Positions 2 through 20,812 of a DNA stretch of 22,410 bases are shown piece after piece. This stretch comes from a virus. The notes beneath the pieces were generated by a model that had not been told where the DNA came from, made no database searches, and worked only from the letters and a program-made list of their open reading frames with translations. The stretch lies in the IMG/VR virus record IMGVR_UViG_3300009506_000203, one strand, 5' to 3'. The position numbers and the translations under genes were made by a program. Position 1 is the stretch's first letter; every line of letters starts with the position of its first letter.

Positions 2-958
2 GACCACGTCAACATCCGGCTGAAGCTGTCCCACCGGGTCAGCTTCGAGGGTGACCCCGAGAAGTGGTTCGACGTGGAGAACTACGTCAAGTTCCTGTGC
101 GACCACGTCCGGTCGGTGCTCAAGGGCGCCGTCAAGCGGATGACCGTCGAGAGCTTCTACGAGAACGCTGTGGACTTCGTCCGCGATACGATTCTCGGGA
201 AGGCCGAGGAGAAGGCCGGTCGGCCAGGCATGGTGTTCGAGGAGAACGGCATGCGCATCGTGGACATCGAGGTGCTGAGCATCCAGATCGTGGATCAGAC
301 GGTGTCCCAGCTGCTCGCGCAGGCGCAGCATGATGTCGTCGCCGGCAACATCATGCTCGACAAGGAGCGGCGCCAGCTGGTACTGACCCAGGAGCGTGAG
401 CGTGTCGCGCGCGAGCGCCGCGAGGCCGAGTACGAGACCGCCGCCCACGGGCTGAAGCTCACGTCGCAGCAGATCGCGGCCGAGCTTCAGGTCGAGATCG
501 AGCGGGCCAACAGCCAGCTCCAGCAGCAGAACAAGGAGAAGCAGGCCGTCGTGGCGGCCCGCGAGGCGATCTCCGACACCGAGCACAAGGCCAGCCTGGA
601 TCGGATCCAGGCGACCGAGCAGCAGCGGCTCAACGTCAAGAAGTCCGAGATCGACCTCCAGCGCGAGAGCCTGGAGGCCGAGGCCAACTCCGTGGTCAAG
701 CGGTTCGAGGCGCTTCAGCCACGGTTCACCGAGGCGCTGCTGGCGCTCCGCGACAGCCGCACCATCGAGGCCGTGGCCGAGGCGTGGAGCATGAACCGGG
801 TCGTCGGCGGCGCCAGCGTGGCCGACGCGCTGAGCACGGTGTTCAAGAACACCCCGCTCGGTGGGATCGCGCAGCGGCTCGCTGGCAGCAACGGCGAGTC
901 CGCTACGGTCGTTCCCGAGCCGCCGCAGCCGCCGACGAGGCCGCGTAGCCGGTCGTAG
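2..958 (+). CDS. SPFH/band-7 (flotillin-like) domain protein, 5'-truncated by the window edge
   Basis: The reading frame is open from nt 2, and listed ORF 74..958 is only its in-window Met-to-stop part. The block IVDIEVLSIQIVDQTVSQLLAQAQ followed by a long Q/E/R-rich coiled coil is typical of the C-terminal half of SPFH proteins. GC3 is high. Confidence 0.5.
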   Translation, partial: DHVNIRLKLSHRVSFEGDPEKWFDVENYVKFLCDHVRSVLKGAVKRMTVESFYENAVDFVRDTILGKAEEKAGRPGMVFEENGMRIVDIEVLSIQIVDQTVSQLLAQAQHDVVAGNIMLDKERRQLVLTQERERVARERREAEYETAAHGLKLTSQQIAAELQVEIERANSQLQQQNKEKQAVVAAREAISDTEHKASLDRIQATEQQRLNVKKSEIDLQRESLEAEANSVVKRFEALQPRFTEALLALRDSRTIEAVAEAWSMNRVVGGASVADALSTVFKNTPLGGIAQRLAGSNGESATVVPEPPQPPTRPRSRS

Positions 959-2472: not shown

Positions 2473-2744
2473 TCGTCGTGCGGCTAGAGGTGTGGCCGCG
2501 GGGTAGGGAGGCGGCTAAGACCGAGCTGGGACTCGTGAAGATCGAGAACGATCTCACCGGAACGACCGCGCTCGGCAACTACATCTACACGTTTCTGCGC
2601 AAGCCGGCAGAGGCTATCCACCCGCGAGTCTGGATTCAGGGTCGCGTCGAGGGGTTTCCCCGCGCTCCTGCGGTCACGACCAGCCCCTGGCAGCTGCTGC
2701 GAGGTGTTCTCGACCACGCGCTAGGAGCTTCGGTATGGCCCTGA
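2469..2744 (+). CDS. hypothetical protein (91 aa)
   Basis: It has an ATGA overlap with the upstream gene and sits in an operon context. Confidence 0.5.
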   Translation: MIVVRLEVWPRGREAAKTELGLVKIENDLTGTTALGNYIYTFLRKPAEAIHPRVWIQGRVEGFPRAPAVTTSPWQLLRGVLDHALGASVWP

Positions 2745-3172
2745 CCCGTAAGATCGCCACCGAGCTGGTCGATGCCCTCAACGACCAGATGGAGCGTTGC
2801 CCTGGCTGCCACGGCGTCGGCAAGGTTCGACAGAGCGGCGACTACCAGGCCTGCTTCTGCCTGGTCTGCGAGGAGTCGGCGCGGGCGCTCTACCTGCTCA
2901 ACAGGAACGACCCCGACAGCATGGCCAAGCTCTCTGACCCGCACGTCCTGGAGGTGCTGCGGCCTGACTACGAGCGCACGGCCAACGCCGCTCGCGAGTT
3001 CGTCAAGCGCTGCCCTGGCTGCTTCGGAATCGGCAAGGTTTGGGCCGGAGCCCAACAGCGCTACTGCCTGGTGTGCCACCGACTCAGGCGTGCCATCGAA
3101 GCCTACGACGGCGTGACCGAGCTGGACAGCACACAGCCGAACGTCGTTCCGATCCCAACGAGGAAGCTATGA
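2735..3172 (+). CDS. tandem CxxCxGxG (DnaJ CR-type) zinc-finger protein
   Basis: Two repeats are present: RCPGCHGVGKV...CLVCE and RCPGCFGIGKV...CLVCH. AGGAG lies 7 nt upstream of the ATG. Confidence 0.55.
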   Translation: MALTRKIATELVDALNDQMERCPGCHGVGKVRQSGDYQACFCLVCEESARALYLLNRNDPDSMAKLSDPHVLEVLRPDYERTANAAREFVKRCPGCFGIGKVWAGAQQRYCLVCHRLRRAIEAYDGVTELDSTQPNVVPIPTRKL

Positions 3173-3811: not shown

Positions 3812-3842
3812 TACACTCCGCCAATTGATCGCAGCTGCGATC
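3812..3842 (+). promoter_or_regulatory. -10-like TACACT (3812-3817) followed by palindrome GATCGCAGCTGCGATC (3827-3842, site 1)
   Basis: The 16-bp perfect palindrome lies in the 106-bp gap before gene 3863. The -10-like hexamer ends 9 nt upstream, and GGGGG (the SD) follows the palindrome. Confidence 0.4.
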
Positions 3843-3862: not shown

Positions 3863-4435
3863 ATGTTCCTTTTGCTTGTACTTCTCAGCGCGTTTCTAGC
3901 GCCCATTCAAACAGCGCAGATTCCGACTGGTGGCTCCATGCGCACGAGTCGCGGCATCTCGACGATCTTCGGCTACTACGGTGACCGCTATGGCCGAAGC
4001 CCAACTCGCTGCCTCTACGATGATGACGGCAACAAGCGCCCCGTTGATCCCGAGCACGATATCGGCATCGCGCACCGCGATCTAGACTGTGGCGCGGTCG
4101 TCTACATCACCAACCTGGAGACCGGGCTGTCGATCCGAGCTGTGGTCGTGGATGCAGGACCGTGGGGCGCGATGTCGAAGAACGCCGCTGGCAAGCCGAT
4201 CTGGTACGTCAAAAAGAACACGAATGCTCGGCCAGGCCGCGATGTCTGCCCTTCGAGGAAGTGCCCGGTCGGCCGCTGGCGCGGGATAGCCGACCTCACG
4301 CCCAAAGCGGCTGAGCTGCTCGGCCACGACGGCTGGGCGAAGATCGTCCTCACCTATGACAAGCGCGACCTGCGCAGCTACAAACGGCTTCAGAAGGCCA
4401 AAGAGGCTCACGAGGACAGGAGGAACCAGAGCTGA
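3863..4435 (+). CDS. secreted RlpA-like double-psi beta-barrel (DPBB) protein
   Basis: The N-terminal signal peptide is MFLLLVLLSAFLAPIQTA. YYGDRYGRSPTRCLYDD...IGIAHRDLDCGAVVYITNLETGLSIRAVVVDAGPWG matches the RlpA DPBB pattern. Confidence 0.6.
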   Translation: MFLLLVLLSAFLAPIQTAQIPTGGSMRTSRGISTIFGYYGDRYGRSPTRCLYDDDGNKRPVDPEHDIGIAHRDLDCGAVVYITNLETGLSIRAVVVDAGPWGAMSKNAAGKPIWYVKKNTNARPGRDVCPSRKCPVGRWRGIADLTPKAAELLGHDGWAKIVLTYDKRDLRSYKRLQKAKEAHEDRRNQS

Positions 4436-7939: not shown

Positions 7940-7965
7940 TGTATCATCGATCGTAGCCACGATCG
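7940..7965 (+). promoter_or_regulatory. TGTATCAT -10-like element followed by palindrome site 3 (GATCGTAGCCACGATC, 7949-7964)
   Basis: The near-palindrome has GATCG/CGATC arms. TATCAT (7942-7947) is immediately upstream. Confidence 0.4.
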
Positions 7966-8036: not shown

Positions 8037-8267
8037 ATGAACAAGCCGAATCGAGTCGAGAACGTCGAGGAGTTCTGGTCGGACGCTCCGCCCACGCCGA
8101 GCCCGCGGTTGGTCTACTGGCAGGCGCGCATCGATGCCGGCTGGAGGCCCAACAAGCGCATCAGCAAGATGGGCTACTACAACGCCGCTGAGTTCTTCGG
8201 CGTCTGGATCTGGGAGTACATCAACGTCATCGCGCCGCGTCTCCAGGAGGCCCACGATGTTCCGTGA
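8037..8267 (+). CDS. hypothetical protein (76 aa)
   Basis: The SD CGGAGG (8027-8032) precedes ATG 8037, and a small hairpin GTCCCC/GGGGAC sits just upstream. The listed ORF 8001..8267 is an upstream extension in the same frame. Confidence 0.5.
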   Translation: MNKPNRVENVEEFWSDAPPTPSPRLVYWQARIDAGWRPNKRISKMGYYNAAEFFGVWIWEYINVIAPRLQEAHDVP

Positions 8268-9651
8268 CGAGCCCGACCTCGACTTCTCGAACCTGCCCGT
8301 CATCGAGCTGGAGTACACGGTCCCCGAGGACGACACCAGCCTGTTCCTCGTTCCGGCCGCGCGGCTGCCCTACCTGCTGGAGCGTATCAAGAAGCTCCAG
8401 AGCCGCCAGAAGCGGCTCGCGAAGGTTGGGCCGCTGGCGGACGCGGCGTTGATCACTGTCGAGGTGACCGCGCGGCAGCTCCGGCCGCCACGGTGCATCT
8501 TCTGCGGGCACGACCAGGTCCCGGCGCACTACAACGACGGCCGCTGCAAGTACGCCGCGGGGTACTGGCGTCCCGGCTCGCCGCGCGTCTACTACCTGTG
8601 CCGCGTCGAGGGTCCGCGCGCCAAGCTCGCCGACTGGGAGTTCATCGCGACTCTCCAGCACGAGGATGCAGGAACCATCCTCCGTGCTGTTCCGGGCGCT
8701 GAGATCGCCGAGGGTGAGCTGGACCGCTTTCGCAACGTGAAGCCGCATTGCGAGCACTGCAACGCTCGCCGCTACCGCAAGGACTCGTTCGTGGTCCGGC
8801 ACGATGACGGTACTCTCCGTCAGGTCGGCCGCACCTGCCTGGGCAAGTACCTGGGTGGCGGCGTCGATCCGAAGGCTATCGCGCGGCTCGCCGAGCTGCT
8901 CATCGAGGCCCGCGGCGCCGCCGATGAGGAGCCCGAGCTGGGCTGGGGGTCCGGCGGCCCGCTCGTCGGCCCGATCAGCGACTTCCTCATCTTCGTCGCT
9001 GCCTGCATCCGGCTCGAAGGCTGGCTGCCGCGCAGCAAGGCCGGGGACGACGAGGTCCCGACCGCAGACCGCGCCTGGGCGCTTCAGTTCCCCTGGTCCC
9101 AGAAGGGTCGTGAGGAAGCGGAGCGCTTCCGCAACCAGATCGAGGACCGCGATGTCGAGCTGGCCCAGGCCGCACTCGACTGCGTTCGGCGCGAACTGAA
9201 CGAGCACAACACCCGCAGCGACTATGAGCACAACCTGCGCGTCGCCTGCGCTGCTGATGTCGTCAAGGGCCGCACCGCTGGCCTGGCGGCCTCGGTGGTG
9301 ACCTGGTACGAGCGGCGCCTGGTCCACGAGCAGCGCCGCCAGGCCGCGCAGAGAGCGGCTCGAAGGGCTGCCAAGCACTCTGAGCACGTCGGCGCAGTCG
9401 GCGACATGATCAACGTCGTCGTGACCGTCCGCGGGATCTCCGATGGCTTCACCGACTACGGTGCCTACCACTTCCACCGCTTCGTCGATGTGAACGACAA
9501 CAACATCATTTGGCGCTCGACCCGTGAGCGGCTCGAAGTCGGCGCGACCTACGAGCTGCGCGGCAAGATCAAGGAGCACGGTGAGTGGAAGGGTATCAAG
9601 CAGACCCAGCTGACTCGGTGCCGGGTCCTCAACAAGATCGACAAGAACTAG
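8257..9651 (+). CDS. large hypothetical protein with C4 zinc ribbons (464 aa)
   Basis: GGAGG lies 6 nt upstream of ATG 8257. It has CIFCG...C and CEHCN...C motifs and a C-terminal beta-rich domain. The upstream part of listed ORF 8134..9651 is S/T-rich off-frame sequence. Confidence 0.55.
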   Translation: MFRDEPDLDFSNLPVIELEYTVPEDDTSLFLVPAARLPYLLERIKKLQSRQKRLAKVGPLADAALITVEVTARQLRPPRCIFCGHDQVPAHYNDGRCKYAAGYWRPGSPRVYYLCRVEGPRAKLADWEFIATLQHEDAGTILRAVPGAEIAEGELDRFRNVKPHCEHCNARRYRKDSFVVRHDDGTLRQVGRTCLGKYLGGGVDPKAIARLAELLIEARGAADEEPELGWGSGGPLVGPISDFLIFVAACIRLEGWLPRSKAGDDEVPTADRAWALQFPWSQKGREEAERFRNQIEDRDVELAQAALDCVRRELNEHNTRSDYEHNLRVACAADVVKGRTAGLAASVVTWYERRLVHEQRRQAAQRAARRAAKHSEHVGAVGDMINVVVTVRGISDGFTDYGAYHFHRFVDVNDNNIIWRSTRERLEVGATYELRGKIKEHGEWKGIKQTQLTRCRVLNKIDKN

Positions 9652-10882: not shown

Positions 10883-11509
10883 CTACTCGATCTCGTCGGC
10901 GCCGAGAACCCCTCGCAGGCCCGCGCTGACGTTGACGCAGCGGACGGCTGCCCGGAGCGACTTCTGCCGCCGACATGCCCGAGCAATCTTGCGGCCGCGG
11001 GGAGTTAGCGCGGCTTCGACGAACCACTCACCGTCGGGACGCTGCGTGAACCTGTACAGATCGCCTTCTACTTCAGCCTCCCAGCGGGGAACGATCGCCG
11101 CGCGTCTGCGGAGCAGCGTGTCCCCTACTCTCACGGCCTTTCCCAGCACGCCTTTGGCTATGAGCTGCGGGTCCAGCTCATAGACGTGCTCGATGCCCGA
11201 TGCCGTATGGAACACGACCGGTGTGCCGTCGGGGTATCGCGATCGATACCAGGTCACGCTCCAGTCATTGCGCATGAATTCGGCTGTGAGGTCCCGACCT
11301 TCACCCCACCAGTCGCGCTTGACCACCTTCCACCCTCCCACAGCCTTGGCAAACTGGTTCGGGGTGATCTCCTCGGCGTGGTTCGTGATGTACTGCACGA
11401 TGTCGTCGTCTGTTTCAGCAATAGCGGCAGCGTTGTGCTCGGGCGGTGGACTCGGGCAGTGCCAAGCGAAGTGGTAGCCTCCGGGCGTCAGCTTGGTGTT
11501 CTTCGACAT
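10883..11509 (-). CDS. hypothetical protein (208 aa), leaderless
   Basis: GTGATAGGAT on the minus strand ends 7 nt before ATG 11509. Confidence 0.5.
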   Translation of the reverse strand: MSKNTKLTPGGYHFAWHCPSPPPEHNAAAIAETDDDIVQYITNHAEEITPNQFAKAVGGWKVVKRDWWGEGRDLTAEFMRNDWSVTWYRSRYPDGTPVVFHTASGIEHVYELDPQLIAKGVLGKAVRVGDTLLRRRAAIVPRWEAEVEGDLYRFTQRPDGEWFVEAALTPRGRKIARACRRQKSLRAAVRCVNVSAGLRGVLGADEIE

Positions 11510-11550
11510 CGAATCGATCCTATCACCTGCCGATGATAGAGTGGAAGCTC
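11510..11550. promoter_or_regulatory. 41-bp divergent region: inverted repeat CTATCA-N8-TGATAG whose two arms are the extended -10 elements of back-to-back leaderless promoters
   Basis: On the minus strand, GTGATAGGAT is followed 7 nt later by ATG 11509. On the plus strand, GATGATAGAGT is followed 8 nt later by GTG 11551. Confidence 0.45.
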
Positions 11551-11835
11551 GTGAAGAAGCTCGCCACGGTTCGCCACATAGACGGTTCTTTCTATGCCTG
11601 GATCTTTCAGTGCCCAGGCTGCCACGACGTGCACCTCGTCGATGGTCGATGGTCCTTCAACAACGACCAAGAGAAGCCGACGTTCCAGCCGTCACTGAAA
11701 CGAACGCGCCCAGGTTACTGCTGCCACTCGTTCGTTCGTGACGGAAAGATCCAGTTTCTCGGTGATTGTACGCACGAGCTTGCGGGCCAAACCGTCGAGA
11801 TTCCAGACTGGGATGGATGGGGCGGCTACGAGTAG
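11551..11835 (+). CDS. hypothetical CPGC...CC protein (alternative start ATG 11533)
   Basis: The listed ORF 11446..11835 extends into the divergent gene. GTG 11551 fits the leaderless promoter, while ATG 11533 lies inside the -10. Confidence 0.45.
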   Translation: MKKLATVRHIDGSFYAWIFQCPGCHDVHLVDGRWSFNNDQEKPTFQPSLKRTRPGYCCHSFVRDGKIQFLGDCTHELAGQTVEIPDWDGWGGYE

Positions 11836-11888
11836 TTGCCGGCGCCCACGGCTGCGGCTAGAGTTGTGGTGCTGCAAGGAGGGGGACG

Positions 11889-12083
11889 GTGGAACAGGCG
11901 ACGCTGGACATGCTCCTGAGTACGTTGACGACGGAGAGTCTCACCGCGCTGGCGGAACCGCGCAAGGACGACGACTCGACGACTACTGCATTGCGGCAGC
12001 ATGCCGCAGTACAGCTCGCCGCTCGACGCGCGAGAGCGGCAGACGAGCTGCACACCGCTCCTGGTGCTCAGCCAGGAAGATGA
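11889..12083 (+). CDS. questionable small ORF (64 aa)
   Basis: A strong SD AAGGAGG sits 8 nt before GTG 11889. GC3 collapses in the second half, where it overlaps the minus-strand Cys-rich gene. Confidence 0.25.
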   Translation: MEQATLDMLLSTLTTESLTALAEPRKDDDSTTTALRQHAAVQLAARRARAADELHTAPGAQPGR

Positions 12084-12204
12084 CCCGCACAGGGACACGG
12101 CAGAACGCGCACGGAACGCAGACAGGGAAGCACTGGTGCTCAGGGTCGTGCTGAGCGCCCGGTGCGTGGCAATCGCAGTCACAGTAGGTCGAGATGGTGT
12201 ACAT
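11983..12204 (-). CDS. small Cys-rich protein (YCDCDCH...CFPVCVPCAFC)
   Basis: It has an ATG at 12204 with a GGGGGG SD, and GC3 of about 79%. Confidence 0.4.
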   Translation of the reverse strand: MYTISTYCDCDCHAPGAQHDPEHQCFPVCVPCAFCRVPVRVIFLAEHQERCAARLPLSRVERRAVLRHAAAMQ

Positions 12205-12267
12205 GGCAATTCCCCCCAGGGAAGCCACCCAACCTACTCGATCGCTGCATGCACTGCAAGCCGTTTG

Positions 12268-12419: not shown

Positions 12420-12866
12420 CTAGTACGATTCCCCGCGGTACGGTTCCGATTGTGGACGAAGATACACATAGGCGCCGATGCTGACGACGGCCAGGAAGCT
12501 GAGCCCGACGGCCCCGATCTTGAGGTAGCTGGTCCGTCGCTCTTTGCGGACCTTCTCGATGAGAGGCTTCAGCGGCGCTTCAGCCCGGTAGTACATGTTC
12601 TTCAGCTCGGCCGCCGACGCTTGCCGAAGGATGGCCAAGGCTTCGTCGGTCATGCCGAACTGGCGCGCGCCATCGGCAAGGTAGATCATGTAACCTTCGC
12701 GGTCGGGGATGTGGTCCGTGCGAAGGTACACGGCGTAGATGCGATCGAAGCCGCCGGGCCGCGCAGCGTCCGTGACGATCTCGTGCTGCTCGTCGAGACT
12801 CCAACGCTCAGCGTTGTAGAGGTCGTCGAGCTGTTCATCGGTGAAGCCTAGTGAGAGGGTGAGCAT
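12420..12866 (-). CDS. hypothetical protein with a C-terminal transmembrane anchor (148 aa)
   Basis: It has an ATG start, and the hydrophobic stretch IGAVGLSFLAVVSIGAYVYL lies near the C-terminus. Confidence 0.5.
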   Translation of the reverse strand: MLTLSLGFTDEQLDDLYNAERWSLDEQHEIVTDAARPGGFDRIYAVYLRTDHIPDREGYMIYLADGARQFGMTDEALAILRQASAAELKNMYYRAEAPLKPLIEKVRKERRTSYLKIGAVGLSFLAVVSIGAYVYLRPQSEPYRGESY

Positions 12867-12870
12867 AGCG

Positions 12871-13086
12871 TCACTCTCCGATGCGACGGATGCAGCCGAG
12901 GTGAATCAAGTCGGTGAAGACCTGACTGGCAGCTTCTTCGGAGCCTTGATGGCCAAGCGCTGCGTCCCGCGAGAGATCTCCGAAGACCAACACTGCCCGC
13001 GTGCAATTGCGTCCCCGAGCGAGCTGCTCGGCTTCATCGACTGCGCGCATCGGGTTCTTGTAGCGGATTGCTTGTCTCCGAGCCAT
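12871..13086 (-). CDS. small hypothetical protein (71 aa), leaderless
   Basis: The -10-like TAGACT ends 6 nt before ATG 13086, and palindrome site 2 lies just upstream. Confidence 0.45.
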   Translation of the reverse strand: MARRQAIRYKNPMRAVDEAEQLARGRNCTRAVLVFGDLSRDAALGHQGSEEAASQVFTDLIHLGCIRRIGE

Positions 13087-13120
13087 AGCGTGAGTCTACA
13101 CCATGATCGCGGCTGCGATC
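13087..13120 (-). promoter_or_regulatory. palindrome site 2 (GATCGCGGCTGCGATC, 13105-13120) followed by GTGTAGACT promoter
   Basis: The palindrome abuts the stop of the upstream minus gene. On the minus strand, the -10 is 6 nt downstream of the palindrome. Confidence 0.45.
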
Positions 13121-13770
13121 TACTTTCGAGGGCGGCGTGGCCGGAAAGAGACGCGTGCCTGGACGGGCTCGCAGTTATAGCCCCATTCCGACAGTGAGTT
13201 GCCGTCCGTCCGAAGGCACGCGGCTGGGACTCGCTTCGAGAGCACACACATGTCCTGGGACGGGTCGGTCCCGTGCCGGCCGTGCTGGATCGCGTAGTCT
13301 CGGGACGTGGTCACCCAGTCGCCGTTGTTGATTTCGCGGACATCGCAGGGAACGGCGCGGTACATCCAGACGCGCGCATCTGGCCGACCTCGGACCCGGC
13401 TCGCGACGTGGAAAGACTCCCAATCGGTCGGTCCGTAGGCGTACCAGTCGGGGCGCCGATAGACATCGTCCGGGTAGACACCGTTGTCGGTCAGATCGTA
13501 GAGCGGCGCGCCTTCCTCACCCGCGGGCCGGTGTTGCATCCCGTAGTCATCCGGCGCCGCGCCGAACAGCCCGCGTAGGCCGCGGACCAAGCCACGTAGC
13601 AACCCGAAGCCGCGGAACTGGGGCCGCTGCTCCGCGTAGCTCGACGCGACGACGTAGCCGTTGGCGATCTTCTCGGCGTGTCGCTCGGCCTGGTCAGGAA
13701 ACTGGTAGACGGCGACCTGTCGAGGGCCGATACCAGGGCGATACTTGAACACCTTGTAGAAGGTTGCCAT
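13120..13770 (-). CDS. hypothetical protein (216 aa)
   Basis: The internal ATG at 13770 has a GAGGA SD and forms a TGATG overlap with the NUDIX stop. The listed ORF 13120..13842 is an upstream extension in the same frame. Confidence 0.5.
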   Translation of the reverse strand: MATFYKVFKYRPGIGPRQVAVYQFPDQAERHAEKIANGYVVASSYAEQRPQFRGFGLLRGLVRGLRGLFGAAPDDYGMQHRPAGEEGAPLYDLTDNGVYPDDVYRRPDWYAYGPTDWESFHVASRVRGRPDARVWMYRAVPCDVREINNGDWVTTSRDYAIQHGRHGTDPSQDMCVLSKRVPAACLRTDGNSLSEWGYNCEPVQARVSFRPRRPRK

Positions 13771-14168
13771 CAGTTCCTCACGAACAGCTCGACGCCCGGG
13801 TGCAGCGGCTGTGGAAGTTGGCCTGGATAGAACCACCCCCAAGCGTCATTCTCCCAGTTGAGTCGCGGCTGCCATCGAGCTGCGGCCCCGGTTGGGATGG
13901 TCGCGATGACGGTCGTGAAAACCCCGCGCGGTGTGCCATCCCTACGGAGGGTGCGCGATGGATGAAAGCTCACGAGCTGCATCGGGGGTAGACTGCCGGT
14001 CTCCTCCTGGAACTCTCGAAGCGCCGTCGCGATTAGGTCGGTATCGCCTGCATCTTCGCGGCCGGCTGGAATCGACCACCAGCCGGGCTCGCTGACCTGC
14101 TGGGACCGTCGGACAAGCAGGACGGCGCCATCATCTCGGACGAGAAGGATGCCAGCGCACTGAGGCAT
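13770..14168 (-). CDS. NUDIX hydrolase
   Basis: REFQEETG is the core of the Nudix box, preceded by PAGREDAGDTD. It is about 130 aa long. Confidence 0.7.
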   Translation of the reverse strand: MPQCAGILLVRDDGAVLLVRRSQQVSEPGWWSIPAGREDAGDTDLIATALREFQEETGSLPPMQLVSFHPSRTLRRDGTPRGVFTTVIATIPTGAAARWQPRLNWENDAWGWFYPGQLPQPLHPGVELFVRN

Positions 14169-14773
14169 CAGACGACCTCACGCAGCTCCGGCGCGTTCGC
14201 GTCCAGCCACCCGATCGCGCGTCGGCTGGCGTCGTTGATGATCGCGCCCTGCTCGATGGTCCTCGACGAGAGATTGAACTGCTTCTCGGCCACAGCGATA
14301 TCGGTCTCGTTGCACTTGTAGGCGCGCAGCAGCTCGGCGAGCTTGTGACCGGCCGGAACGTAACCGTAGCGCCAGTAGTGCATCTCCAGGTTGCAGCGGT
14401 AGGCATCGGCCTCGTAGTGCGCACGACCGGAGGAGCGCAGCAGGTACTTCCACACGAAGGTCTGGCCTTCCTTGTGGTACTGGTAGACGTGCTGGTGCTC
14501 GTGGACAGCTGTCGTGATCTGGTCCCACAAGCTCCACGCCTCGGCTTCAGCGTCGGGCACTTCCCCAACAGTGAAGGGGATGTAGATGCGATTACCGAGT
14601 GTGGTCGCGAACCTCGTCATGAAGGTCTTTACGTCCATCGCATTGATGAGGCGCAGGGCCTGTGCGATGACCTTCATCTCCAGCGCGTCGGAGCGCTTGA
14701 TGACGCGCGACTCGTAGTGGCCACTCATATAGGCCCAGAAGTCCCTGACCACCTCTGGAGTTGGATCAGCCAT
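14168..14773 (-). CDS. HExxH-motif protein, putative zinc metallopeptidase (201 aa)
   Basis: It has HEHQH with a downstream Glu (EADAY). The internal ATG at 14773 has a GGAGGG SD. The upstream part of listed ORF 14168..14968 is R/S/K-rich sequence. Confidence 0.5.
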   Translation of the reverse strand: MADPTPEVVRDFWAYMSGHYESRVIKRSDALEMKVIAQALRLINAMDVKTFMTRFATTLGNRIYIPFTVGEVPDAEAEAWSLWDQITTAVHEHQHVYQYHKEGQTFVWKYLLRSSGRAHYEADAYRCNLEMHYWRYGYVPAGHKLAELLRAYKCNETDIAVAEKQFNLSSRTIEQGAIINDASRRAIGWLDANAPELREVV

Positions 14774-14774
14774 C

Positions 14775-15275
14775 CTATTGGCCCTCCGCCGCGTGTTCAT
14801 CTGGTGGCGGTGCGGGGGACCAGGGCAGCGGCTGCGGCGCTTCCTTCTGCACCGTGTCCCAGTCACTGAGCGGTGCCGGTGAATCAGCTGGCCGCTTCTC
14901 CATCTTGGCGAGGCCATGCGGCTTCTCTTTGAGCGCGTGGAGCTTCGCTTCGTAGTCCCGTCTCTCAACTCCGGTCCGCGGCGGTTCGGTCCCGATCATC
15001 GAGATGGCTTCGTCGAGGTCGCGTTCCACCAGGGACAGTCGGTAGTAGAGGTCCGCACGGGCACGGTCAGCATCTATGAGCTTCTGACGAACCGCGTGGT
15101 AGGCGCGCTCAGCTCGTTGATCGGTCCATTCCCGTGTCTCCTTGACTTGCTCCTTTGCCTCGTTCCCTTTGCGGCGCGCAGCACGACTATCGAAGTAGGC
15201 GTTGGCAGCGCCAGCCACTGCGATGACCAGTGCAATCCACGGAGCGTATTTCTGTGCGGCCTCTTTTTTCGGCAT
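14775..15275 (-). CDS. membrane-anchored coiled-coil protein (166 aa)
   Basis: ATG 15275 has a GGGAGGGG SD. The N-terminal TM segment is YAPWIALVIAVAGAANAYF. Confidence 0.5.
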   Translation of the reverse strand: MPKKEAAQKYAPWIALVIAVAGAANAYFDSRAARRKGNEAKEQVKETREWTDQRAERAYHAVRQKLIDADRARADLYYRLSLVERDLDEAISMIGTEPPRTGVERRDYEAKLHALKEKPHGLAKMEKRPADSPAPLSDWDTVQKEAPQPLPWSPAPPPDEHAAEGQ

Positions 15276-15286
15276 TTCCCCTCCCA

Positions 15287-15544
15287 CTAAGTCGGCACGA
15301 ACGCGACCCTTTGAAACATGAATGCCGGATGCGTAAACCGCACCGTCAGCGGCGACCAGCGCGTCCAGGTTGTGCCGTCACCCTGGTGGTACTCGACGAG
15401 TGCCTGCGCCGTGAAGACGTGATCCTTGACATCGAGCAGCTTCCACCACTCCCTCTGCCCGCCAACTATCGCTGGTGTCACACCGTAGTCGATCACGTCA
15501 CCAACCTGGACATCCTTACCGCTGCGTGCATCGATAACTCTCAT
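15287..15544 (-). CDS. small hypothetical protein (85 aa)
   Basis: The internal ATG at 15544 has a GAGGA SD. The upstream part of the listed ORF is R/G-rich. Confidence 0.4.
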   Translation of the reverse strand: MRVIDARSGKDVQVGDVIDYGVTPAIVGGQREWWKLLDVKDHVFTAQALVEYHQGDGTTWTRWSPLTVRFTHPAFMFQRVAFVPT

Positions 15545-15552
15545 CGGTGTCC

Positions 15553-16371
15553 TCAGTACGCCAACAGCCGCCAGTAGATGCGCGGCGCCCCAGAGTTGAG
15601 TGTGGTCTTGATGAAAAGCCACTGGACATTGGGCGGGACGACCAGATCGAAGACCGCCTCGCCGCTTGGCGCTGCCATCGTCTGCGCGGTCGTGAGATCG
15701 AACTCGAAGGTGGGAGTCAACCCTGTCCACGGGCTCTGCGCCGCTGTCAACTGCACATCGCAGCTCCCCGCATGCGTGCTTCGTTTGAACAGCACCCGAA
15801 GCCGCTTTCGCCCAGAGATCGCGAGGACCCTGACGACGTTGGTGCCAGCTGGCACGATCATCTGGCTCGGAGATTCTGAGATCGGGCCCAAAGCAGTAGG
15901 CACGTTCGTGGGCGGCCGAAGATAGGCTATGAGTTGGAGCTTTGGGTAGACCGGCGTGACATCGTCACCGGAGGTGCCGCCGAAGATCGGAACGCCGTTG
16001 GGGTCGTTCCCCATCGCGAAGCCGAATGGCGTGCTGACGCTCGTGCCCACCGGGTAGTAGGCGTCGTCGAATCTCTGCATCGGAACCGACCGTCCTCGCC
16101 ACGGTCCGGGGATGTCTCCGATGAAGGGTGCTTCTGGCGTGACTATCTGCTGAGAGGCGATCCCCCACGCGTTCGATTGCACCGCGAACGTGTCCAGGTC
16201 GCTGTTGGGGTGGATGGCAATGCCTGCCAGGGAGAAGTTCTGAAGCCCTGTGTCGAGGCTTTGTGGATCCCCCGATGCGCCACCGTTTCCCCAGTTCGTC
16301 AGGGAGAATGCGAAGCGGTCATAGCCCTTGATGAGCGCCGTAGAGGGATCGACGATGTATTCGAGTGTCAC
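15553..16371 (-). CDS. G/S/T/P-rich beta-type protein (272 aa), possibly structural or secreted
   Basis: It has a GTG start with an AGAGGA SD and sits in a tightly packed operon. Confidence 0.5.
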   Translation of the reverse strand: MTLEYIVDPSTALIKGYDRFAFSLTNWGNGGASGDPQSLDTGLQNFSLAGIAIHPNSDLDTFAVQSNAWGIASQQIVTPEAPFIGDIPGPWRGRSVPMQRFDDAYYPVGTSVSTPFGFAMGNDPNGVPIFGGTSGDDVTPVYPKLQLIAYLRPPTNVPTALGPISESPSQMIVPAGTNVVRVLAISGRKRLRVLFKRSTHAGSCDVQLTAAQSPWTGLTPTFEFDLTTAQTMAAPSGEAVFDLVVPPNVQWLFIKTTLNSGAPRIYWRLLAY

Positions 16372-16374
16372 GCG

Positions 16375-16587
16375 TCAGTCCTCTTTCGCACGGCGCCGCA
16401 TGACGATACGACGAGCTGCTGCCAGCGCGTTGCTACACTTCCCCGGCGCGCCGCCACTCATGTGCCATCCAGTGCGATCATCCTTGATGGTGAACCTGCA
16501 CGCCCCATCGGTGCTTCGGACCGTGATGAAATAGTTGCCGACCTGGTCCTCAGCGTAGAAGTTACCCAGCTGTCGTCGCTTGCGCAT
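16375..16587 (-). CDS. small basic protein (70 aa)
   Basis: ATG 16587 has AGGAG 8 nt upstream. Confidence 0.4.
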   Translation of the reverse strand: MRKRRQLGNFYAEDQVGNYFITVRSTDGACRFTIKDDRTGWHMSGGAPGKCSNALAAARRIVMRRRAKED

Positions 16588-16589
16588 TG

Positions 16590-16853
16590 TCACTTCTCCT
16601 CGCAGGTCGGTAAACAGGTGTGCCCCTCTGGCGTCTCACAACAGACGAACGGCTGCTCGTCCTTCGAGCTGGTCACCCCGGAGCAATCCATGTTCGTGTC
16701 CCAGCGCTTGTCGCTGCCGCAGATCTCCGCAACGTTGCCGTTGCAGCGGGTCGCCGTCGGTTCGCAGTTGTCCTTCTTCTCCGTGGCTACGTTCCACAGA
16801 GGGCACCCTGACAGCATGCTCAGGGTCAGGATGATGATCAGCGCGCGCAGCAT
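16590..16853 (-). CDS. Cys-rich secreted lipoprotein
   Basis: The signal peptide MLRALIIILTLSMLSGC carries a lipobox. The mature part has 9 Cys. Confidence 0.55.
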   Translation of the reverse strand: MLRALIIILTLSMLSGCPLWNVATEKKDNCEPTATRCNGNVAEICGSDKRWDTNMDCSGVTSSKDEQPFVCCETPEGHTCLPTCEEK

Positions 16854-16906
16854 GTCTCAACATATCACGCTGCGATCACTCACGCGACCGCGATCAGATC
16901 AGCTTG

Positions 16907-17224
16907 TCACCACTTCTTCACGCACTTGCGCAGCTCGTCCGGGCAGCTTGGCTCACGAGCAAAGCAGCTGCGAACTGACTGGAGTGCGCGAAGCGCGTTG
17001 TCGCGATCTTCCAGCTTCACACGAGCGAGCGCTGTGTCCACGAGGCAAACCCACTCGGCTGATGACGCCACGCTCAGACCGTGTGAGACCGTCGTGACCG
17101 GCAGCCCGCTAGACTTCTGAACCGCCTTGGGATACCGCATCCCCCACTTCGACTCGATGTGGAACTCCATGTCCGGGTTCTTCGCCTTGCGGATCTTGAC
17201 CCCGGTCGCTTCCTTCTTCGCCAT
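16907..17224 (-). CDS. hypothetical protein (105 aa)
   Basis: It has an ATG with an AGGAG SD. Confidence 0.45.
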   Translation of the reverse strand: MAKKEATGVKIRKAKNPDMEFHIESKWGMRYPKAVQKSSGLPVTTVSHGLSVASSAEWVCLVDTALARVKLEDRDNALRALQSVRSCFAREPSCPDELRKCVKKW

Positions 17225-17225
17225 G

Positions 17226-17528
17226 CTATCTCCTGCGGGGACCGCTCAGCTTGAGCTTGTGCGTGAGGGGCGGCTGGTTCTGCCACCGCGCTGCAATCGG
17301 TGGAGGCTCCGGGATCGTGATCTCCTCACCGACACGCTGGCAGCTGCATCGCTTGATGATGAGTTTGCAGTTCCGCATCTCGCGGTTGTACTTGACCATG
17401 TCGCGGACCAGCGTCCGCAGCGCGTGCCGTCCACGACGGACGGCTTGCTTCATCGTGTCGCCCTCGACGGTCGTTTCGATGTTCGCTCGCGTCGGCTTGG
17501 TGCCGCAGTAGACGATCCCTTCGTACAT
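17226..17528 (-). CDS. hypothetical protein (100 aa)
   Basis: The internal ATG at 17528 has AGGAG 7 nt upstream. The upstream part of listed ORF 17226..17582 is P/S-rich. Confidence 0.45.
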   Translation of the reverse strand: MYEGIVYCGTKPTRANIETTVEGDTMKQAVRRGRHALRTLVRDMVKYNREMRNCKLIIKRCSCQRVGEEITIPEPPPIAARWQNQPPLTHKLKLSGPRRR

Positions 17529-17536
17529 GTTGGCTC

Positions 17537-18034
17537 CTACCGGTGGTGGCGGCGACCGCTCAGCTCGACTGGTGGCGGACATGCGACCGGGCGGGGCTTG
17601 CGCTCCTTCTTCAACCGCTGGAAGCCAGCAGCGCGCCCTCTCTCAATGCCGGCCTTCACGCCCTTCGTCTGCGGGACCTCACCGAGGATCCGCTCAGGTG
17701 GAATGGGCTCGCTGGTCATGTAGAACTCAGGCAGGTTCGGCGACCGCAACGGCCGGTAGACCGGGCAGTGCTCTTTGGTCCCGACGATCCTCACCTTGAG
17801 GATGGTTAGGGGCTCGTCGGGGCAGCCCTCCCTGACGGCCCGCTTCGCGATGTGCTCTGCGGCGTAGTTCGGGCTCCGCGTGAACCAGATGTCGCCCCGC
17901 GGGCCCTTCCTCAATCCCTGCTTCTTGATGAGGCTCGCACGGAGCTTGTAGGTCCCGTGGTAGCCCACGAAGTCACACTTGCCGAAGGGCTGGACCTCGA
18001 CCCACTTGCCTAGCTGGCGGCGTCGCCTTGACAT
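17537..18034 (-). CDS. minimal Tpt1/KptA-like (NAD-dependent ADP-ribosyl/2'-phosphotransferase fold) protein with a basic C-terminal tail
   Basis: VGYHGTYKLRASLIKKQGLRKGPRGDIWFTRS...EPLTILKV parallels KptA LYHGTASRFLDEIKKQGL...RHYVHLS...SPVILTV. The N-terminal RNA-binding lobe is absent. The start is leaderless at ATG 18034. Confidence 0.4.
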   Translation of the reverse strand: MSRRRRQLGKWVEVQPFGKCDFVGYHGTYKLRASLIKKQGLRKGPRGDIWFTRSPNYAAEHIAKRAVREGCPDEPLTILKVRIVGTKEHCPVYRPLRSPNLPEFYMTSEPIPPERILGEVPQTKGVKAGIERGRAAGFQRLKKERKPRPVACPPPVELSGRRHHR

Positions 18035-18073
18035 GGGCCCCAGTATACACGGTCTCGGATCGCAGCTGTGATC
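18035..18073 (-). promoter_or_regulatory. leaderless promoter GTGTATACT plus palindrome site 4 (GATCGCAGCTGTGATC, 18058-18073)
   Basis: On the minus strand, TATACT ends 7 nt before ATG 18034. The palindrome lies 10 nt upstream of the -10, in the -35 position. Confidence 0.45.
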
Positions 18074-18246
18074 GAGCGGCCTGCGACCGGGCCCGCGGTC
18101 GAACCCGCGGCCGAGACATCGAGACAGCGATACCGGAGCGGGGCCATCCCCCCGAATCGCCACGGGGTGGCGGCACAGTTCTGTGCAGGCCCACTGAGAT
18201 GTGCTCTACTGGTGGCGGAGACGTTCGAGGTGGCTGGGTGCCGCGG

Positions 18247-18284
18247 CGCCCGCCAGGCTGAGCTGGTCTGGCGGGCGTCATTTT
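18247..18284 (+). terminator. intrinsic terminator-like hairpin (10-bp stem CGCCCGCCAG/CTGGCGGGCG, then TCATTTTG)
   Basis: It is a perfect inverted repeat with a T-run, and no plus-strand CDS lies upstream. Confidence 0.45.
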
Positions 18285-18440
18285 GCCGGCCTTCGAGCCG
18301 CCCGAGCTGGCCGCCCCGCGCAGCTCGTGTGGGCTCCTGTCGCGCCCATGGCCGAGCTGGTTGGGCCGCGCGGCCAGCGCCCGCGACGAGGCCACAGAGG
18401 CGCTCCTGGAGCGTCCTGGAGGGCATGCACTATACGCCCG

Positions 18441-18720
18441 ATCGGAAGATCCAATTTTGGGGGTCTAACTACCTTGATCGGGCCCTTTTTCGGCCCGTTT
18501 CCCCTTTGATTACCGGCCTGTGTAGGTGATCGTTACTCAGGGTTAGATCCCTCCCCTACCCCTTATAGATCCGCTGGTACATCTATCAACTTTTCATAGA
18601 TTTACTAGCCGAAACTAAGGAGGGTATAGGGACTTCTAACCTTGTAGATTTCGGGTGTTTTCAGTAGGGATCTCACGGAGATCAAGGTCCCCCTCCAATT
18701 GTTAGTGGTACGGCGCGTCA
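18441..18720. repeat. AT-rich (about 45-50% GC) repeat island
   Basis: It contains TCTAAC twice and GGTTAGA as inverted copies. It has three YRTAGATYY direct repeats, a GATCTC-acg-GAGATC palindrome, and an orphan AAGGAGG. Confidence 0.4.
18479..18505 (+). terminator. hairpin CGGGCC-ctttttc-GGCCCG followed by TTTCCCCTTTGATT
   Basis: It has a 6-bp GC stem and a T-rich tail, at the edge of the AT-rich island. Confidence 0.4.
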
Positions 18721-18796
18721 AAGTTGAAATGTAGTCGTGGCAACGGGTAGTACACTGCAAGAAAGTCACTGGCCCTTGCGGCCGGTGACTGTGAAT

Positions 18797-18868
18797 GTCG
18801 TTGACGTGCTATGTCAACGTCGCACGCTGTCGTTGCACGTCGCGAGCGTGCCGTGTACGATCCCAACG
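18797..18868 (+). promoter_or_regulatory. operator repeats plus a sigma70-like promoter TTGCAC-17-TACGAT for the RHH-AP2 gene
   Basis: Direct repeats TGTCGTTGACGT (18797-18808) and TGTCGTTGCACGT (18829-18841) flank the inverted copy GTCAACG (18813-18819). The -10 at 18856-18861 ends 7 nt before ATG 18869. Confidence 0.45.
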
Positions 18869-19561
18869 ATGCCGCCGAAGCACCGTCTCACGGTTCGCAT
18901 GGAGGATGACCTCTATGACTACCTGCATCAACGCGCGGCACGAAATTTCCGCACGGCACCCGACGAAGTGCAGGCGATCGTATTTGCGCTGAGGGCTGCT
19001 GAGCGCGCTGCGGATACCTCTCCGTTGCCGTCGTCCGAGCTGCCGGCCGTGCTGACGGGCGCTTCCGACGCGGGACCTGAAGCGGAGCCCGAGGCGCCCC
19101 CCGAGCCCGGTGTGACCCACAAGCTCCGCGGCCCGCGCGGCACCCTCTCGGGCTACTTCGGCGTACACCGGTACGGGAAGCGTTGGATAGCCAAGCTGAC
19201 CAGAAATGGTGTAGCGACAAAGGTCGGTGTGTTCGACGACCCGGAGGAAGCTGCCCAAGCCTACGACGACGCCGTCAGGACCAGCGGAACTGGCGGCCGG
19301 CTCAACTTCCCGACGGAGCAGGAGGAAGCTGCACGGTCCAGCGGCGGCTTGGAGACGCTGCCTGACTGGATCCGCGTGCAGGGGCCCGGAGCGTCGGACA
19401 TCCCCCCAGAGCATCTTCCTGAAGCTCTACGGCGTGGTCTCATCGCGTCCGGCGAGATGGACGTGCCGCCAGTCGAGGACCACTACGAGGCGCCCTCTGA
19501 TGAGGACGCGGACCTGGTCCCGGACCCGGACATCGACCCCGATCCGCCCTCCCTCCACTGA
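18869..19561 (+). CDS. ribbon-helix-helix + AP2 DNA-binding domain regulator
   Basis: The N-terminal RLTVRMEDDLYDYLHQRAARNF is an RHH beta-strand and helix. GYFGVHRYGKRWIAKLTRNGVATKVGVFDDPEEAAQAYDDAV is an AP2 domain. The upstream 44 codons of listed ORF 18737..19561 cover the operator repeats. Confidence 0.6.
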   Translation: MPPKHRLTVRMEDDLYDYLHQRAARNFRTAPDEVQAIVFALRAAERAADTSPLPSSELPAVLTGASDAGPEAEPEAPPEPGVTHKLRGPRGTLSGYFGVHRYGKRWIAKLTRNGVATKVGVFDDPEEAAQAYDDAVRTSGTGGRLNFPTEQEEAARSSGGLETLPDWIRVQGPGASDIPPEHLPEALRRGLIASGEMDVPPVEDHYEAPSDEDADLVPDPDIDPDPPSLH

Positions 19562-19570
19562 GGCTGTGTG

Positions 19571-19603
19571 GGCGCCCCTCACTTGGGGGAAGCGAGGGGC
19601 GCC
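19571..19603. terminator. 10-bp GC stem-loop (GGCGCCCCTC/GAGGGGCGCC) between convergent genes
   Basis: It is a perfect inverted repeat with no clear U-tract. It may act as a bidirectional terminator. Confidence 0.4.
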
Positions 19604-19688
19604 GATAGGGTGCTGGGTTTCAGCCACCGGGCGGGCGGCGTTGACTCTTGATCTCTAGCAGAAAGTGTGCGGGGCGCGCAATTGAATT

Positions 19689-19704
19689 GATCGTGTGAGC
19701 GATC
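19689..19704. promoter_or_regulatory. palindrome-family site 5 (GATCGTGTGAGCGATC)
   Basis: It has the GATCG-N6-CGATC arms and overlaps the stop of the minus gene 19703..19951. Confidence 0.3.
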
Positions 19705-19951
19705 AGGCTCCCTTGAGCTTCGAGCGCCGCAGCCGGAGCGCGGTCCCGTTGGCCAGCATCACGGCCGGCTTACCGCGGAACTCGCACACGTAGGCGAAGC
19801 CGCCGGTTGGAATGCTTCGCCCCTTTCCAACGTAGGGCTTCCCGGAGATCTGGACGAAGCTCGCGTCGCCCTGGTGCTGGACCGGGATGTCCCGACAGGT
19901 CTCTAGATCCCAGCCGATCTCGCGTCGTCGGTGCCGACCCAGCCTCGTCAT
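19703..19951 (-). CDS. hypothetical protein (82 aa), leaderless
   Basis: On the minus strand, CGTGATAGATT ends 6 nt before ATG 19951. Confidence 0.4.
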   Translation of the reverse strand: MTRLGRHRRREIGWDLETCRDIPVQHQGDASFVQISGKPYVGKGRSIPTGGFAYVCEFRGKPAVMLANGTALRLRRSKLKGA

Positions 19952-20038
19952 GAGGCCAATCTATCACGAAGCAGAAACCGCCACCAGGCGTCGAAACGCT
20001 GTGGGACCGCGCTGGAGCGTCAGGATTAAAGAAGCGCA

Positions 20039-20812
20039 TCAGCGCAAGGATACCACGCGGTAGCCTTCGATGTGCACGTAGAGCAACGTCCCATCAGGTG
20101 GCCGCGGGTCTTCCTTCTTGGAGCGCTTCGTGAACCCAATGTCGAACTGGCCGTCGAAGTTCTGTCGCGGTGGGATGAAGACATCGAGCGGCTGCGGACG
20201 TAGTTGGAGCTGGTGTGCAAGGCCCGTTGCTATCGTCCTGCCGCCAAGATGCAGCGTGACAGCGCCGTAGAGCGGTTGGACAGCGGGGAGTGTCGTCACG
20301 TAGAAGTGGGTCGCGAACGCGATGTCGTCGCCCCAGACGAGCTGACCGGCTACTGTAAGGTTCGTCCGCTCGACGGCGCCAACGTTCGCGTTGCTGAATA
20401 ACCGGACTCGACTGAACTCTCCGAAGATGCCTCCGAACTCGATCGAGTCGTAGACGTGAAGACGCTGGAGGTCGTTGACGCGGATCTTCCGGTCGTCATC
20501 TACGCTGTCCATGAAGCGCTTGAGCAGCCAGGATGGAGCTTCGTCGAGCCGCCGTAGGTCCCGCAACAATCGAGCAGCGCGCACAGCCAGGTCACCAGGG
20601 CTGCTGGACTCCTGGCGCTTGATTCGCTCGATGATGGTCTCTTGGGCCTCGTCAGGCAGCGCATCCCAGGGCTGCGGGATCCCCTCGGCATCGCACCAGA
20701 GTGAACCGAGCAGACCCATTCGGTAGCGGTCTACTATCTCCGTAGCTACGTCGAGCTTGCCGACGACGGCAGCCGCTTCGGCTGCGTCCAGTACATCGTC
20801 GAGGTCGGACAC
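20039..20812 (-). CDS. hypothetical protein (257 aa)
   Basis: It has a GTG start. It is long and coding-like, with a divergent promoter region upstream. Confidence 0.5.
   Translation of the reverse strand: MSDLDDVLDAAEAAAVVGKLDVATEIVDRYRMGLLGSLWCDAEGIPQPWDALPDEAQETIIERIKRQESSSPGDLAVRAARLLRDLRRLDEAPSWLLKRFMDSVDDDRKIRVNDLQRLHVYDSIEFGGIFGEFSRVRLFSNANVGAVERTNLTVAGQLVWGDDIAFATHFYVTTLPAVQPLYGAVTLHLGGRTIATGLAHQLQLRPQPLDVFIPPRQNFDGQFDIGFTKRSKKEDPRPPDGTLLYVHIEGYRVVSLR

Follow-up and report, generated by a model that had tools for sequence, protein, structure and literature searches.

We analysed a stretch of viral DNA of 22,410 nucleotides (IMG/VR record IMGVR_UViG_3300009506_000203, hereafter the window), with a focus on eleven minus-strand genes, g1 to g11, that form a block at positions 13120-18034 (Table 1). 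We moderately favour the view that a large uncultured phage carries here a mosaic accessory block, most likely involved in the manipulation of the host or of its defences around ADP-ribosylation, and not a dedicated metabolic pathway. Its best reading is that of an early or accessory modular host-manipulation block whose enzymatic core would be ADP-ribosylation. A preliminary description of the sequence had presented the region as a candidate counter-defence operon enriched in NAD- and nucleotide-metabolite enzymes. The sequence features that it listed are for the most part confirmed. The NAD theme holds and is even stronger than proposed, with two proteins of the ADP-ribosyltransferase (ART) fold (g1 and, probably, g11) and a NUDIX hydrolase (g10) among 11 genes. 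The enzymology is partly supported, and the counter-defence role is plausible rather than directly supported.

ART-fold proteins, the NUDIX hydrolase and the zincin-like protein

Sequence and structure model indicate that g1 is a stand-alone NAD-lobe ART and not a member of the Tpt1 family. Its match to the Tpt1 model PF01885 scores 14.5 bits (13.7-18.7 bits for the members of its family) against a gathering cutoff of 26 and covers only positions 103-139 of the 177 of the model. Furthermore, only 25 residues precede His26 of the HGT motif, and the AlphaFold2 (AF2) model consists of a single ART domain. The C-terminal NAD+-binding ART-fold lobe with the HGT motif is present and the N-terminal RNA-binding lobe, which carries the catalytic Arg-His...Arg of Tpt1, is not, as already noticed in the preliminary description. 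Tpt1 is the best structural match of g1, Arr is also among the closest ones and the Rhs toxin TreX ranks between the two. The weak Pfam matches of the g1 family and of its remote tandem-domain relatives concern ART families only (Tpt1 C-lobe, PARP at 1.1e-7, ART-PolyVal and DUF3990).

In an alignment of 14 members of the g1 family, H26, T28, Y29, R32, W50, H61, G70 and C71 are invariant, and there is no conserved acidic residue on the EFYMT strand. The strand that corresponds, by motif order, to the 'VHLS' strand bearing the second His of Tpt1 reads (I/V)W(F/L)(T/A/S) and includes the invariant W50. Four Cys are conserved (20, 71, 90 and 152), the last one in the basic CPPP[VI]xL tail at the C-terminus (17537-17600), and may form a structural metal site. 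In two distant members (P0070 and P0077), the C-terminus is extended by a hydrophobic, transmembrane-like segment. Because a catalytic Glu is missing, the closest structural matches include Tpt1 and Arr and the pI (isoelectric point) reaches 10.6, we infer that g1 takes ADP-ribose from NAD+ and attaches it to a nucleic acid or a small molecule, at a phosphate or hydroxyl group. Such a Glu-less enzyme with very basic tails would be unlike a Glu-dependent protein toxin.

The resemblance to Tpt1 also raises the alternative of a genuine Tpt1/KptA-type activity, in which g1 would use NAD+ to convert 2'-PO4 RNA into 2'-OH RNA. Besides the structural match, KptA is encoded by jumbo phages, and a KptA-Nudix fusion occurs in Bodo saltans virus (PMC9503650; BFVD match). 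However, g1 is devoid of the entire RNA-binding lobe (Arg-His-Arg) and remains below the Pfam threshold, an invariant Trp apparently occupies the position of the second His of Tpt1, and no RNA ligase, 2H or PNK domain was detected among the window open reading frames (ORFs) that were scanned. We therefore consider this activity barely conceivable.

The g1 family is extremely rare. An index of 5.8 billion proteins yielded five relatives, an exhaustive profile search over 1.84 billion representatives nine at E<1e-10 and a metagenome scan one short contig. IMG/VR and 185,579 species genomes yielded none, and tblastn against 50,697 phage records gave no match. Comparison of g1, g9 and g11 with PDB chains, by single sequence and by profile, gave only chance matches (virginiamycin lyase repeats, superantigen SpeA and a His-tag artefact). 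If the predictions hold, g1, as the first gene of a regulated unit, would offer a compact test of what a Tpt1-type NAD lobe does without the RNA lobe.

The 216-aa (amino acid) product of g11, left unassigned in the preliminary description, is probably, but not certainly, an ART-fold protein of the R-(S/T)-E type. Its structure model displays the split beta-sheet of ARTs. The family is characterised by R138 (MYRAV), by GDWVTT followed by a helix with YA..H, and by E195 (SEWGY), and these three elements fall on the strands that bear the triad in R-S-E ARTs, the strands being taken from the secondary structure of the model. R138 and E195 are invariant and T155 nearly so (V-[TSA]-T context); there is no ExE/QxE motif. 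In addition, hhalign aligns 'GIWFTRSPxYAxEH' of g1 with 'GDWVTTSxxYAxxH' of g11 (E 1.3e-3, probability 19%). No curated ART family appears among the Pfam matches of 24 members. Residues 70-207 match the C-terminal part of phrog_2579, annotated as 'ParB C-terminal domain'. An enzyme of this kind would probably modify a host macromolecule.

Homologues of g11 are mostly stand-alone proteins of ~140 aa. Genes of this type are carried by 180 deposited phages, including 159 Mycobacterium phages, under the labels ParB C-terminal domain, ParB-like or hypothetical (for instance NC_021309.1, 68342-68731, the corresponding domain spanning 13120-13560 in the window). In phage Phrux, the gene encodes 129 aa and lies among small right-arm genes. 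The g1 ART model also gives weak matches to the ParB-fused versions found in Mycobacterium phages Bigswole and Stubby. These genes have no consistent neighbours elsewhere. The ART reading would re-annotate a common actinophage gene and provide an easy experimental system in phages of Mycobacterium smegmatis. A 153-aa gene located after the NUDIX gene of L005, a related 243.7-kb groundwater contig, was considered as g11-like and rejected. Near its g9-NUDIX pair, this contig also carries R2K ATP-grasp and TnpB/Cas12f-like genes (11455-12213 and 18498-20582).

The assignment of g10 as a NUDIX hydrolase is confirmed: judging from its Pfam match, it is a bona fide member. With respect to the consensus GX5EX7REUXEEXGU, the REFQEETG core is intact, a D replaces the first E and one residue is inserted; the box is canonical in the orthologue from L004, the closest relative of the window with full coverage (67-77% nucleotide identity). 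The best PDB matches are generic MutT/NUDIX proteins (E 6.5e-5), and ADPRases follow at E ~0.008 over the box region alone. The PDB search revealed no specific similarity to ADPRase, NudC, NudE or NadM-type enzymes, and phage matches are equally generic. The enzyme would hydrolyse ADP-ribose, NAD-type dinucleotides, or ADP-ribose (ADPr) adducts or caps derived from or related to the ART reactions.

The g9 product is a putative protease or processing factor. H91, E92, H95 and E121 are invariant in 29 homologues, of which ten match DUF6782 (putative metallopeptidase) and six eCIS_core below threshold. No peptidase was matched by sequence in the PDB, and the MPTase-PolyVal model was not matched. 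The last ~45 residues of the family profile (14168-14310 in the window) resemble the C-terminal helix of the E. coli ADP-ribose pyrophosphatase NudF (1g0s, E 0.043), probably by chance. The preliminary description had coupled this HExxH protein to the NUDIX hydrolase; the invariant motif and the gene overlap stand, but the coupling is broken by insertions in relatives. L004 has a palindrome and a 99-aa gene between the two, and JGI 3300042731 has three genes. An obligate g9-NUDIX pair was therefore rejected: the linkage is limited to close relatives, and distant homologues of g9, like those of g11, are not NUDIX-linked. For instance, a g9 homologue with 45% identity is flanked in a prophage by capsid and tail-completion genes and has no NUDIX gene nearby.

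Control modules and mosaicism of the block

A palindrome of the form GATCGCAGCTG(C/T)GATC / GATCGCAGCTGCGATC occurs four times in the window when up to three mismatches are tolerated (0.38 expected), and all four copies are intergenic. The preliminary description had placed an operator and a leaderless promoter at the head of the block, and a 16-bp palindrome, TATACT and an ATG devoid of Shine-Dalgarno sequence are indeed found there; TATACT would act as a leaderless-type promoter. This palindrome/TATACT/ATG module is kept nearly unchanged in three related loci (L002, L003 and L004) despite differing flanking DNA, and GTGTATACTGGG..ATG upstream of g1 is invariant across four loci. The degenerate element ahead of g4 is probably an internal promoter, and L004 has GATCACAGTCACGATC-N4-TATGTT-N6-ATG at the same place. 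The copy at the end of g11 heads the next unit, which starts with a 71-aa ORF, and a perfect palindrome occupies the equivalent position of L004 (14973).

The two other copies lie outside the block, and the regulon would therefore extend beyond it. The one at 3827-3842 is perfect and found 20 nt before a plus-strand ATG (3863), with TACACT preceding. The one at 7949-7964 has three mismatches and lies 74 nt before a plus-strand ATG (8038). The conserved association of palindrome and leaderless-promoter module would be a usable handle for finding the regulon and its regulator.

The block had been described as a single operon with 1-12-nt gaps and TGATG overlaps. Tight packing and two CTGATG overlaps (g9/g10 and g10/g11) agree with this, the successive junctions from g1 to g11 being 8, 1, 53, 2, 3, 8, 11, 1, -1 and -1 nt, but the 53-nt gap between g3 and g4 contains a promoter-like module. 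All genes have a coding-type GC content at third codon positions (0.68-0.86), and no intrinsic terminator is predicted inside the block except two weak ones within g4. Because the same promoter/operator module brackets and subdivides the block, the latter is probably not one operon under the control of one site. Leftward transcription would start from short promoters of the leaderless type, in which TAnnnT lies 5-7 nt ahead of the ATG. A GATC-N8-GATC palindrome, the probable binding site of a dimeric regulator, precedes or overlaps each of them. This would give two or more units (g1-g3 and g4-g11), with a further one beginning directly after g11.

Two regions upstream of g1 are also worth describing. 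The first one (18075-18420; 346 bp, 73% GC) lacks codon-position periodicity in any frame and is hence non-coding. It separates a conserved AT-richer block from the g1 operator, matches no tRNA or Rfam family and has RNA fold z-scores of -1.1 (minus strand) and -2.8 (plus strand). A tRNA-like T-arm suspected upstream of g1 was abandoned, as ARAGORN and Rfam found nothing. In relatives, a divergent Kyano_Gp96 gene, which is not in the window, takes the place of this region. The second one (18422-18722; ~300 bp, 49% GC) is non-coding and ~70-82% conserved in L002 and L004, with the invariant sub-blocks GATCTC-N3-GAGATC, AAGGGGTAGGGG, CCGATCAAGGT..TAGACCCCCAAAATTG and GTATAGTGCA, a -10-like box facing g1. 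With fold z-scores of -2.7 and -3.8, it is a candidate regulatory region, non-coding RNA or origin.

Comparison with L004 reveals the mosaic nature of the block: g1, g3, g4, g8, g9, g10, the 71-aa ORF and g12 are common to both, and g2, g5, g6, g7 and g11 are replaced in L004. Such data would fit a possible, if unlikely, alternative, namely a recombination hot spot that collects 'moron'-type cassettes with palindrome/promoter modules, without joint function of the genes and with ART and NUDIX domains merely reflecting their frequency in large phages. Just six of the 11 genes are common to the closest relative, insertions separate g9 from the NUDIX gene in two relatives (in one case after a perfect palindrome), and homologues of g9 and g11 are found in unrelated contexts. 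Moreover, base rates are high, since ARTs are encoded by >40% and Nudix proteins by 45% of jumbo phages (PMC9503650). However, the order g1, g3, g4 ... g8, g9 ... NUDIX is kept across relatives at 57-77% protein identity and the control module is conserved. Furthermore, the slot of g11 contains in L004 a different 105-aa mini-ART (LYHGT), which matches the Tpt1 and ART-PolyVal models and is followed by a perfect palindrome. The block thus ends with an ART-fold gene of a different family in the window and in L004, which suggests selection for that function at this slot and argues for the host-manipulation reading.

Table 1. Features of the block and of its immediate surroundings
Feature	Position	Strand	Description
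Palindrome GATCGCAGCTGTGATC	18058-18073	.	16 bp; candidate operator over the -35 region of the g1 promoter
TATACT, -10-like	18042-18047	-	10 nt after the palindrome, 7 nt before the g1 ATG; no Shine-Dalgarno
g1	17537-18034	-	165 aa, pI 10.6; minimal ART-fold protein; YHGT and GIWFT motifs, basic CPPPV tail
g2	17226-17528	-	100 aa, basic ORFan; accessory, not in L004
g3	16907-17224	-	105 aa, conserved; 68% identity to L004 10505-10822; follows g1 in all relatives
Internal element	16859-16877	-	Degenerate GATCGCAGC-GTGA (GATC element) and TATGTT, 5 nt before the g4 ATG, in a 53-nt gap
g4	16590-16853	-	87 aa lipoprotein, lipobox LSGC, 9 Cys; phrog_14364 2.4e-12; 74% identity in L004
g5	16375-16587	-	70 aa, basic ORFan; accessory
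g6	15553-16371	-	272 aa, G/S/T/P-rich ORFan; accessory, not in L004
g7	15287-15544	-	85 aa ORFan; accessory
g8	14775-15275	-	166 aa; N-terminal transmembrane segment, then coiled-coil-like and Pro-rich regions; 57% identity in L004
g9	14168-14773	-	201 aa; zincin-like, HEHQH and E121 (gluzincin pattern); phrog_13834 7.7e-53
g10	13770-14168	-	132 aa NUDIX hydrolase; PF00293 1.8e-18, 67.3 bits vs cutoff 21.1
g11	13120-13770	-	216 aa; residues 80-216 a probable second ART-fold domain (R138, T154/T155, E195, H163)
Palindrome, second copy GATCGCGGCTGCGATC	13105-13120	.	Overlaps the g11 stop; then TAGACT (13098-13093), 6 nt, ATG 13086
71-aa ORF	12871-13086	-	First gene of the next palindrome-headed unit; 67% identity to L004 15290-15499

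Possible roles of the block and phage context

Several features suggest that the window is part of a large phage. It has a GC content of 63% and densely packed small ORFs, several of its products match PHROG families only and an HNH-like gene adjoins the block. Homologues of a 464-aa product (8257-9651) are encoded by 135 phage genomes of ~80-310 kb, and related contigs reach 90.5 kb and 243.7 kb. Host signals are mixed: g11-type matches favour actinobacterial phages, the best match of the 464-aa protein is a 308-kb Acidobacteria phage and many of its further matches are Vibrio or Aeromonas phages. The 50,697 deposited phage records contain no near-identical relative of the block or of the window. 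A 21-kb Logan contig (SRR14699975) is 99.9% identical to the window, and independent gene calling on it gives the same genes.

Other genes of the window show unusual features. The product of the gene at 74-958 (plus strand) matches the 'shoulder' domain of the major vault protein (PF11978, 4.1e-17), which is unusual in a phage-like context. The gene at 2735-3172 (plus strand) encodes a Cys-rich protein with repeated CxxC-type motifs and weak DnaJ_CXXCXGXG and cytochrome c3 matches, and spans a 35-nt direct repeat (2793-2827 and 3006-3040; spacing 213 nt). Near the block, g12 (12420-12866) encodes a tail-anchored membrane protein and is a tandem duplicate in L004 (15508-15942 and 15944-16378).

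Within the block, g6 has zero Pfam, PHROG or PADLOC matches and zero tblastn matches among the phage records, and 105-aa genes occupy the slot of g3 in relatives. The Cys-rich lipoprotein and the membrane protein reported earlier are recovered as g4, with its lipobox, and g8, with its transmembrane segment and a weak holin PHROG match (0.0054); both would act at the envelope. Small lipoproteins and membrane proteins are classic exclusion factors. They could thus belong to a toxin/immunity or superinfection exclusion system, in which the ARTs would be toxins checked by small neighbours such as g3, and the lipoprotein and membrane proteins would block competing phages. The position of g3, always directly downstream of g1, and the hydrophobic C-terminal tails of two distant g1 homologues are consistent with this. 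However, no Macro, ARG, DarG or other known ART antitoxin domain was found in Pfam/PHROG scans, an integrase/lysogeny module is missing from the window, and an ART fold alone is no proof of toxicity. We regard such a system as very improbable.

The preliminary description had also listed nucleotide-related domains outside the block. CYTH (7155; 1.5e-5), YpsA/SLOG (1252; 6.9e-14), DUF1653 (5557; 6.4e-15) and APS kinase (21737; 7.5e-51) were all found again, but the gene at 4435, taken for DUF4406, gives DUF7768 (1.8e-31) in Pfam instead. Together with the NUDIX gene of the block, the SLOG, CYTH and DUF7768 genes could point to a counter-defence island directed against immune signals (Thoeris, CBASS, Pycsar or DSR type) that are NAD-derived or cyclic nucleotides. 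Such signals would be degraded or sequestered, the NUDIX and Tpt1-like proteins acting on cyclic ADPr isomers or ADP-ribose derivatives. Published work connects the H-H-h ART clade, the one nearest to g1, with small molecules and with ADPr derivatives in soluble form. Moreover, the literature already contains the general proposal that Nudix, SLOG and Macro domains of large phages act against soluble ADPr signals (PMC9503650).

Several observations make this signal-degrading role quite unlikely. The SLOG, CYTH and DUF7768 genes are located 6-16 kb away, on the other strand and in other transcription units. ART folds transfer ADP-ribose and do not degrade signals, the NUDIX protein has only generic MutT-like similarity and its linkage is not conserved beyond close relatives. 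The remaining genes encode a lipoprotein, a membrane protein and ORFans, and such domains have a high base rate in large phages. Furthermore, PADLOC gave no match for g1, g3, g6, g9, g11, g12, SLOG, CYTH and DUF7768 and only a weak generic NUDIX/PDC-S07 match. Pfam/PHROG scans of the block, made without a dedicated anti-defence library of hidden Markov models, revealed no known anti-defence family.

The host-manipulation reading agrees with published work on phage effectors. ARTs and Nudix proteins are often deployed at the start of infection by jumbo phages (PMC9503650), and early-phase phage effectors have ART, zincin MPTase and ParB domains as hubs (PMC5512222). In addition, AcrIF11 is an example of an anti-defence enzyme that is a small phage ART (PMC12421852). 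One may even imagine that the g1 family is a new clade of stand-alone 'H-W' ARTs, devoid of Glu and equipped with basic arms and with a CPPPV tail anchored by four Cys. As the first product of an operator-controlled unit, such an enzyme would add ADP-ribose to an immune nucleotide signal or to a nucleic-acid end that bears a phosphate. The distal slot would swap ART cassettes (g11 type in the window, LYHGT mini-ART in L004) and the NUDIX hydrolase would process ADPr products, the whole forming a modular ART-centred counter-defence locus. This scenario is decidedly speculative and we consider it improbable.

Several points weigh against a host-manipulation role centred on ADP-ribosylation. Relatives differ in gene content, so that the genes may act without any cooperation, and six of the 11 products have no assignable function. 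Given the lack of a conserved catalytic acid, g1 could be a binding protein or an NADase. Distant homologues of g9 are found in head-tail morphogenesis or regulatory regions. Moreover, no helix-turn-helix regulator that could recognise the palindrome was detected among the window ORFs.

Comparison with known systems

g1 shares the C-terminal NAD+ lobe of Tpt1/KptA (PF01885) but differs by the loss of the N-terminal RNA-binding lobe, and therefore of three of the four catalytic Arg/His. It also differs by an additional basic C-terminal helix, by the CPPPV tail with conserved Cys and by a Trp that apparently replaces the second His. Among minimal stand-alone ARTs, it has no significant sequence similarity to the rifampin ART Arr or to the small phage ARTs; many phages are already known to encode small, uncharacterised ARTs that are similarly bare.

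g11 differs from R-S-E ARTs, such as cholera and pertussis toxins and T4 Alt, ModA and ModB, by a spacing of just 17 residues between the Arg and TTS, and by a single Glu without ExE/QxE motif. It has no sequence-level match to an ART model or to a PDB chain, including in a profile search of the whole family. An additional N-terminal sub-domain (residues 80-130) is conserved and contains an invariant His80. The likeness to AcrIF11, an anti-CRISPR ART of phages and plasmids, is at the fold level only (64 aligned residues, 9% identity), with no pointer to CRISPR or to a target.

The polyvalent-protein effectors of phages and conjugative elements bring together the same kinds of domains, i.e. an H-type ART, a HExxH zincin-like domain as in g9 and a g11-type ART. 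Relatives of g1 weakly match ART-PolyVal, and the g11-type domain is ParB-fused in mycobacteriophages. For such effectors, a role early in infection is predicted (PMC5512222). However, the domains are encoded here by separate small genes instead of one giant polypeptide, and the window provides no MuF or head-packaging context.

Finally, the block can be compared with the phage NAD+/ADPr network surveyed by Iyer et al. (2022). The ART families of the block are not among the annotated ones, and its ART and Nudix genes, which belong to the same block, are neither adjacent nor fused and have a linkage limited to one clade. Nevertheless, both have in common the association of ART and Nudix, with SLOG elsewhere, in a large phage. 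Moreover, the Tpt1/Ap4A-hydrolase fusion of Bodo saltans virus is a structural match of g1. The survey proposes that such enzymes modify host macromolecules and counter ADPr-derived signals. The block does not overturn current views and fits the published picture of the heavy investment of large phages in ADP-ribosylation. If our predictions hold, it would add two uncharacterised ART families to the NAD+/ADP-ribose enzymes of phages.

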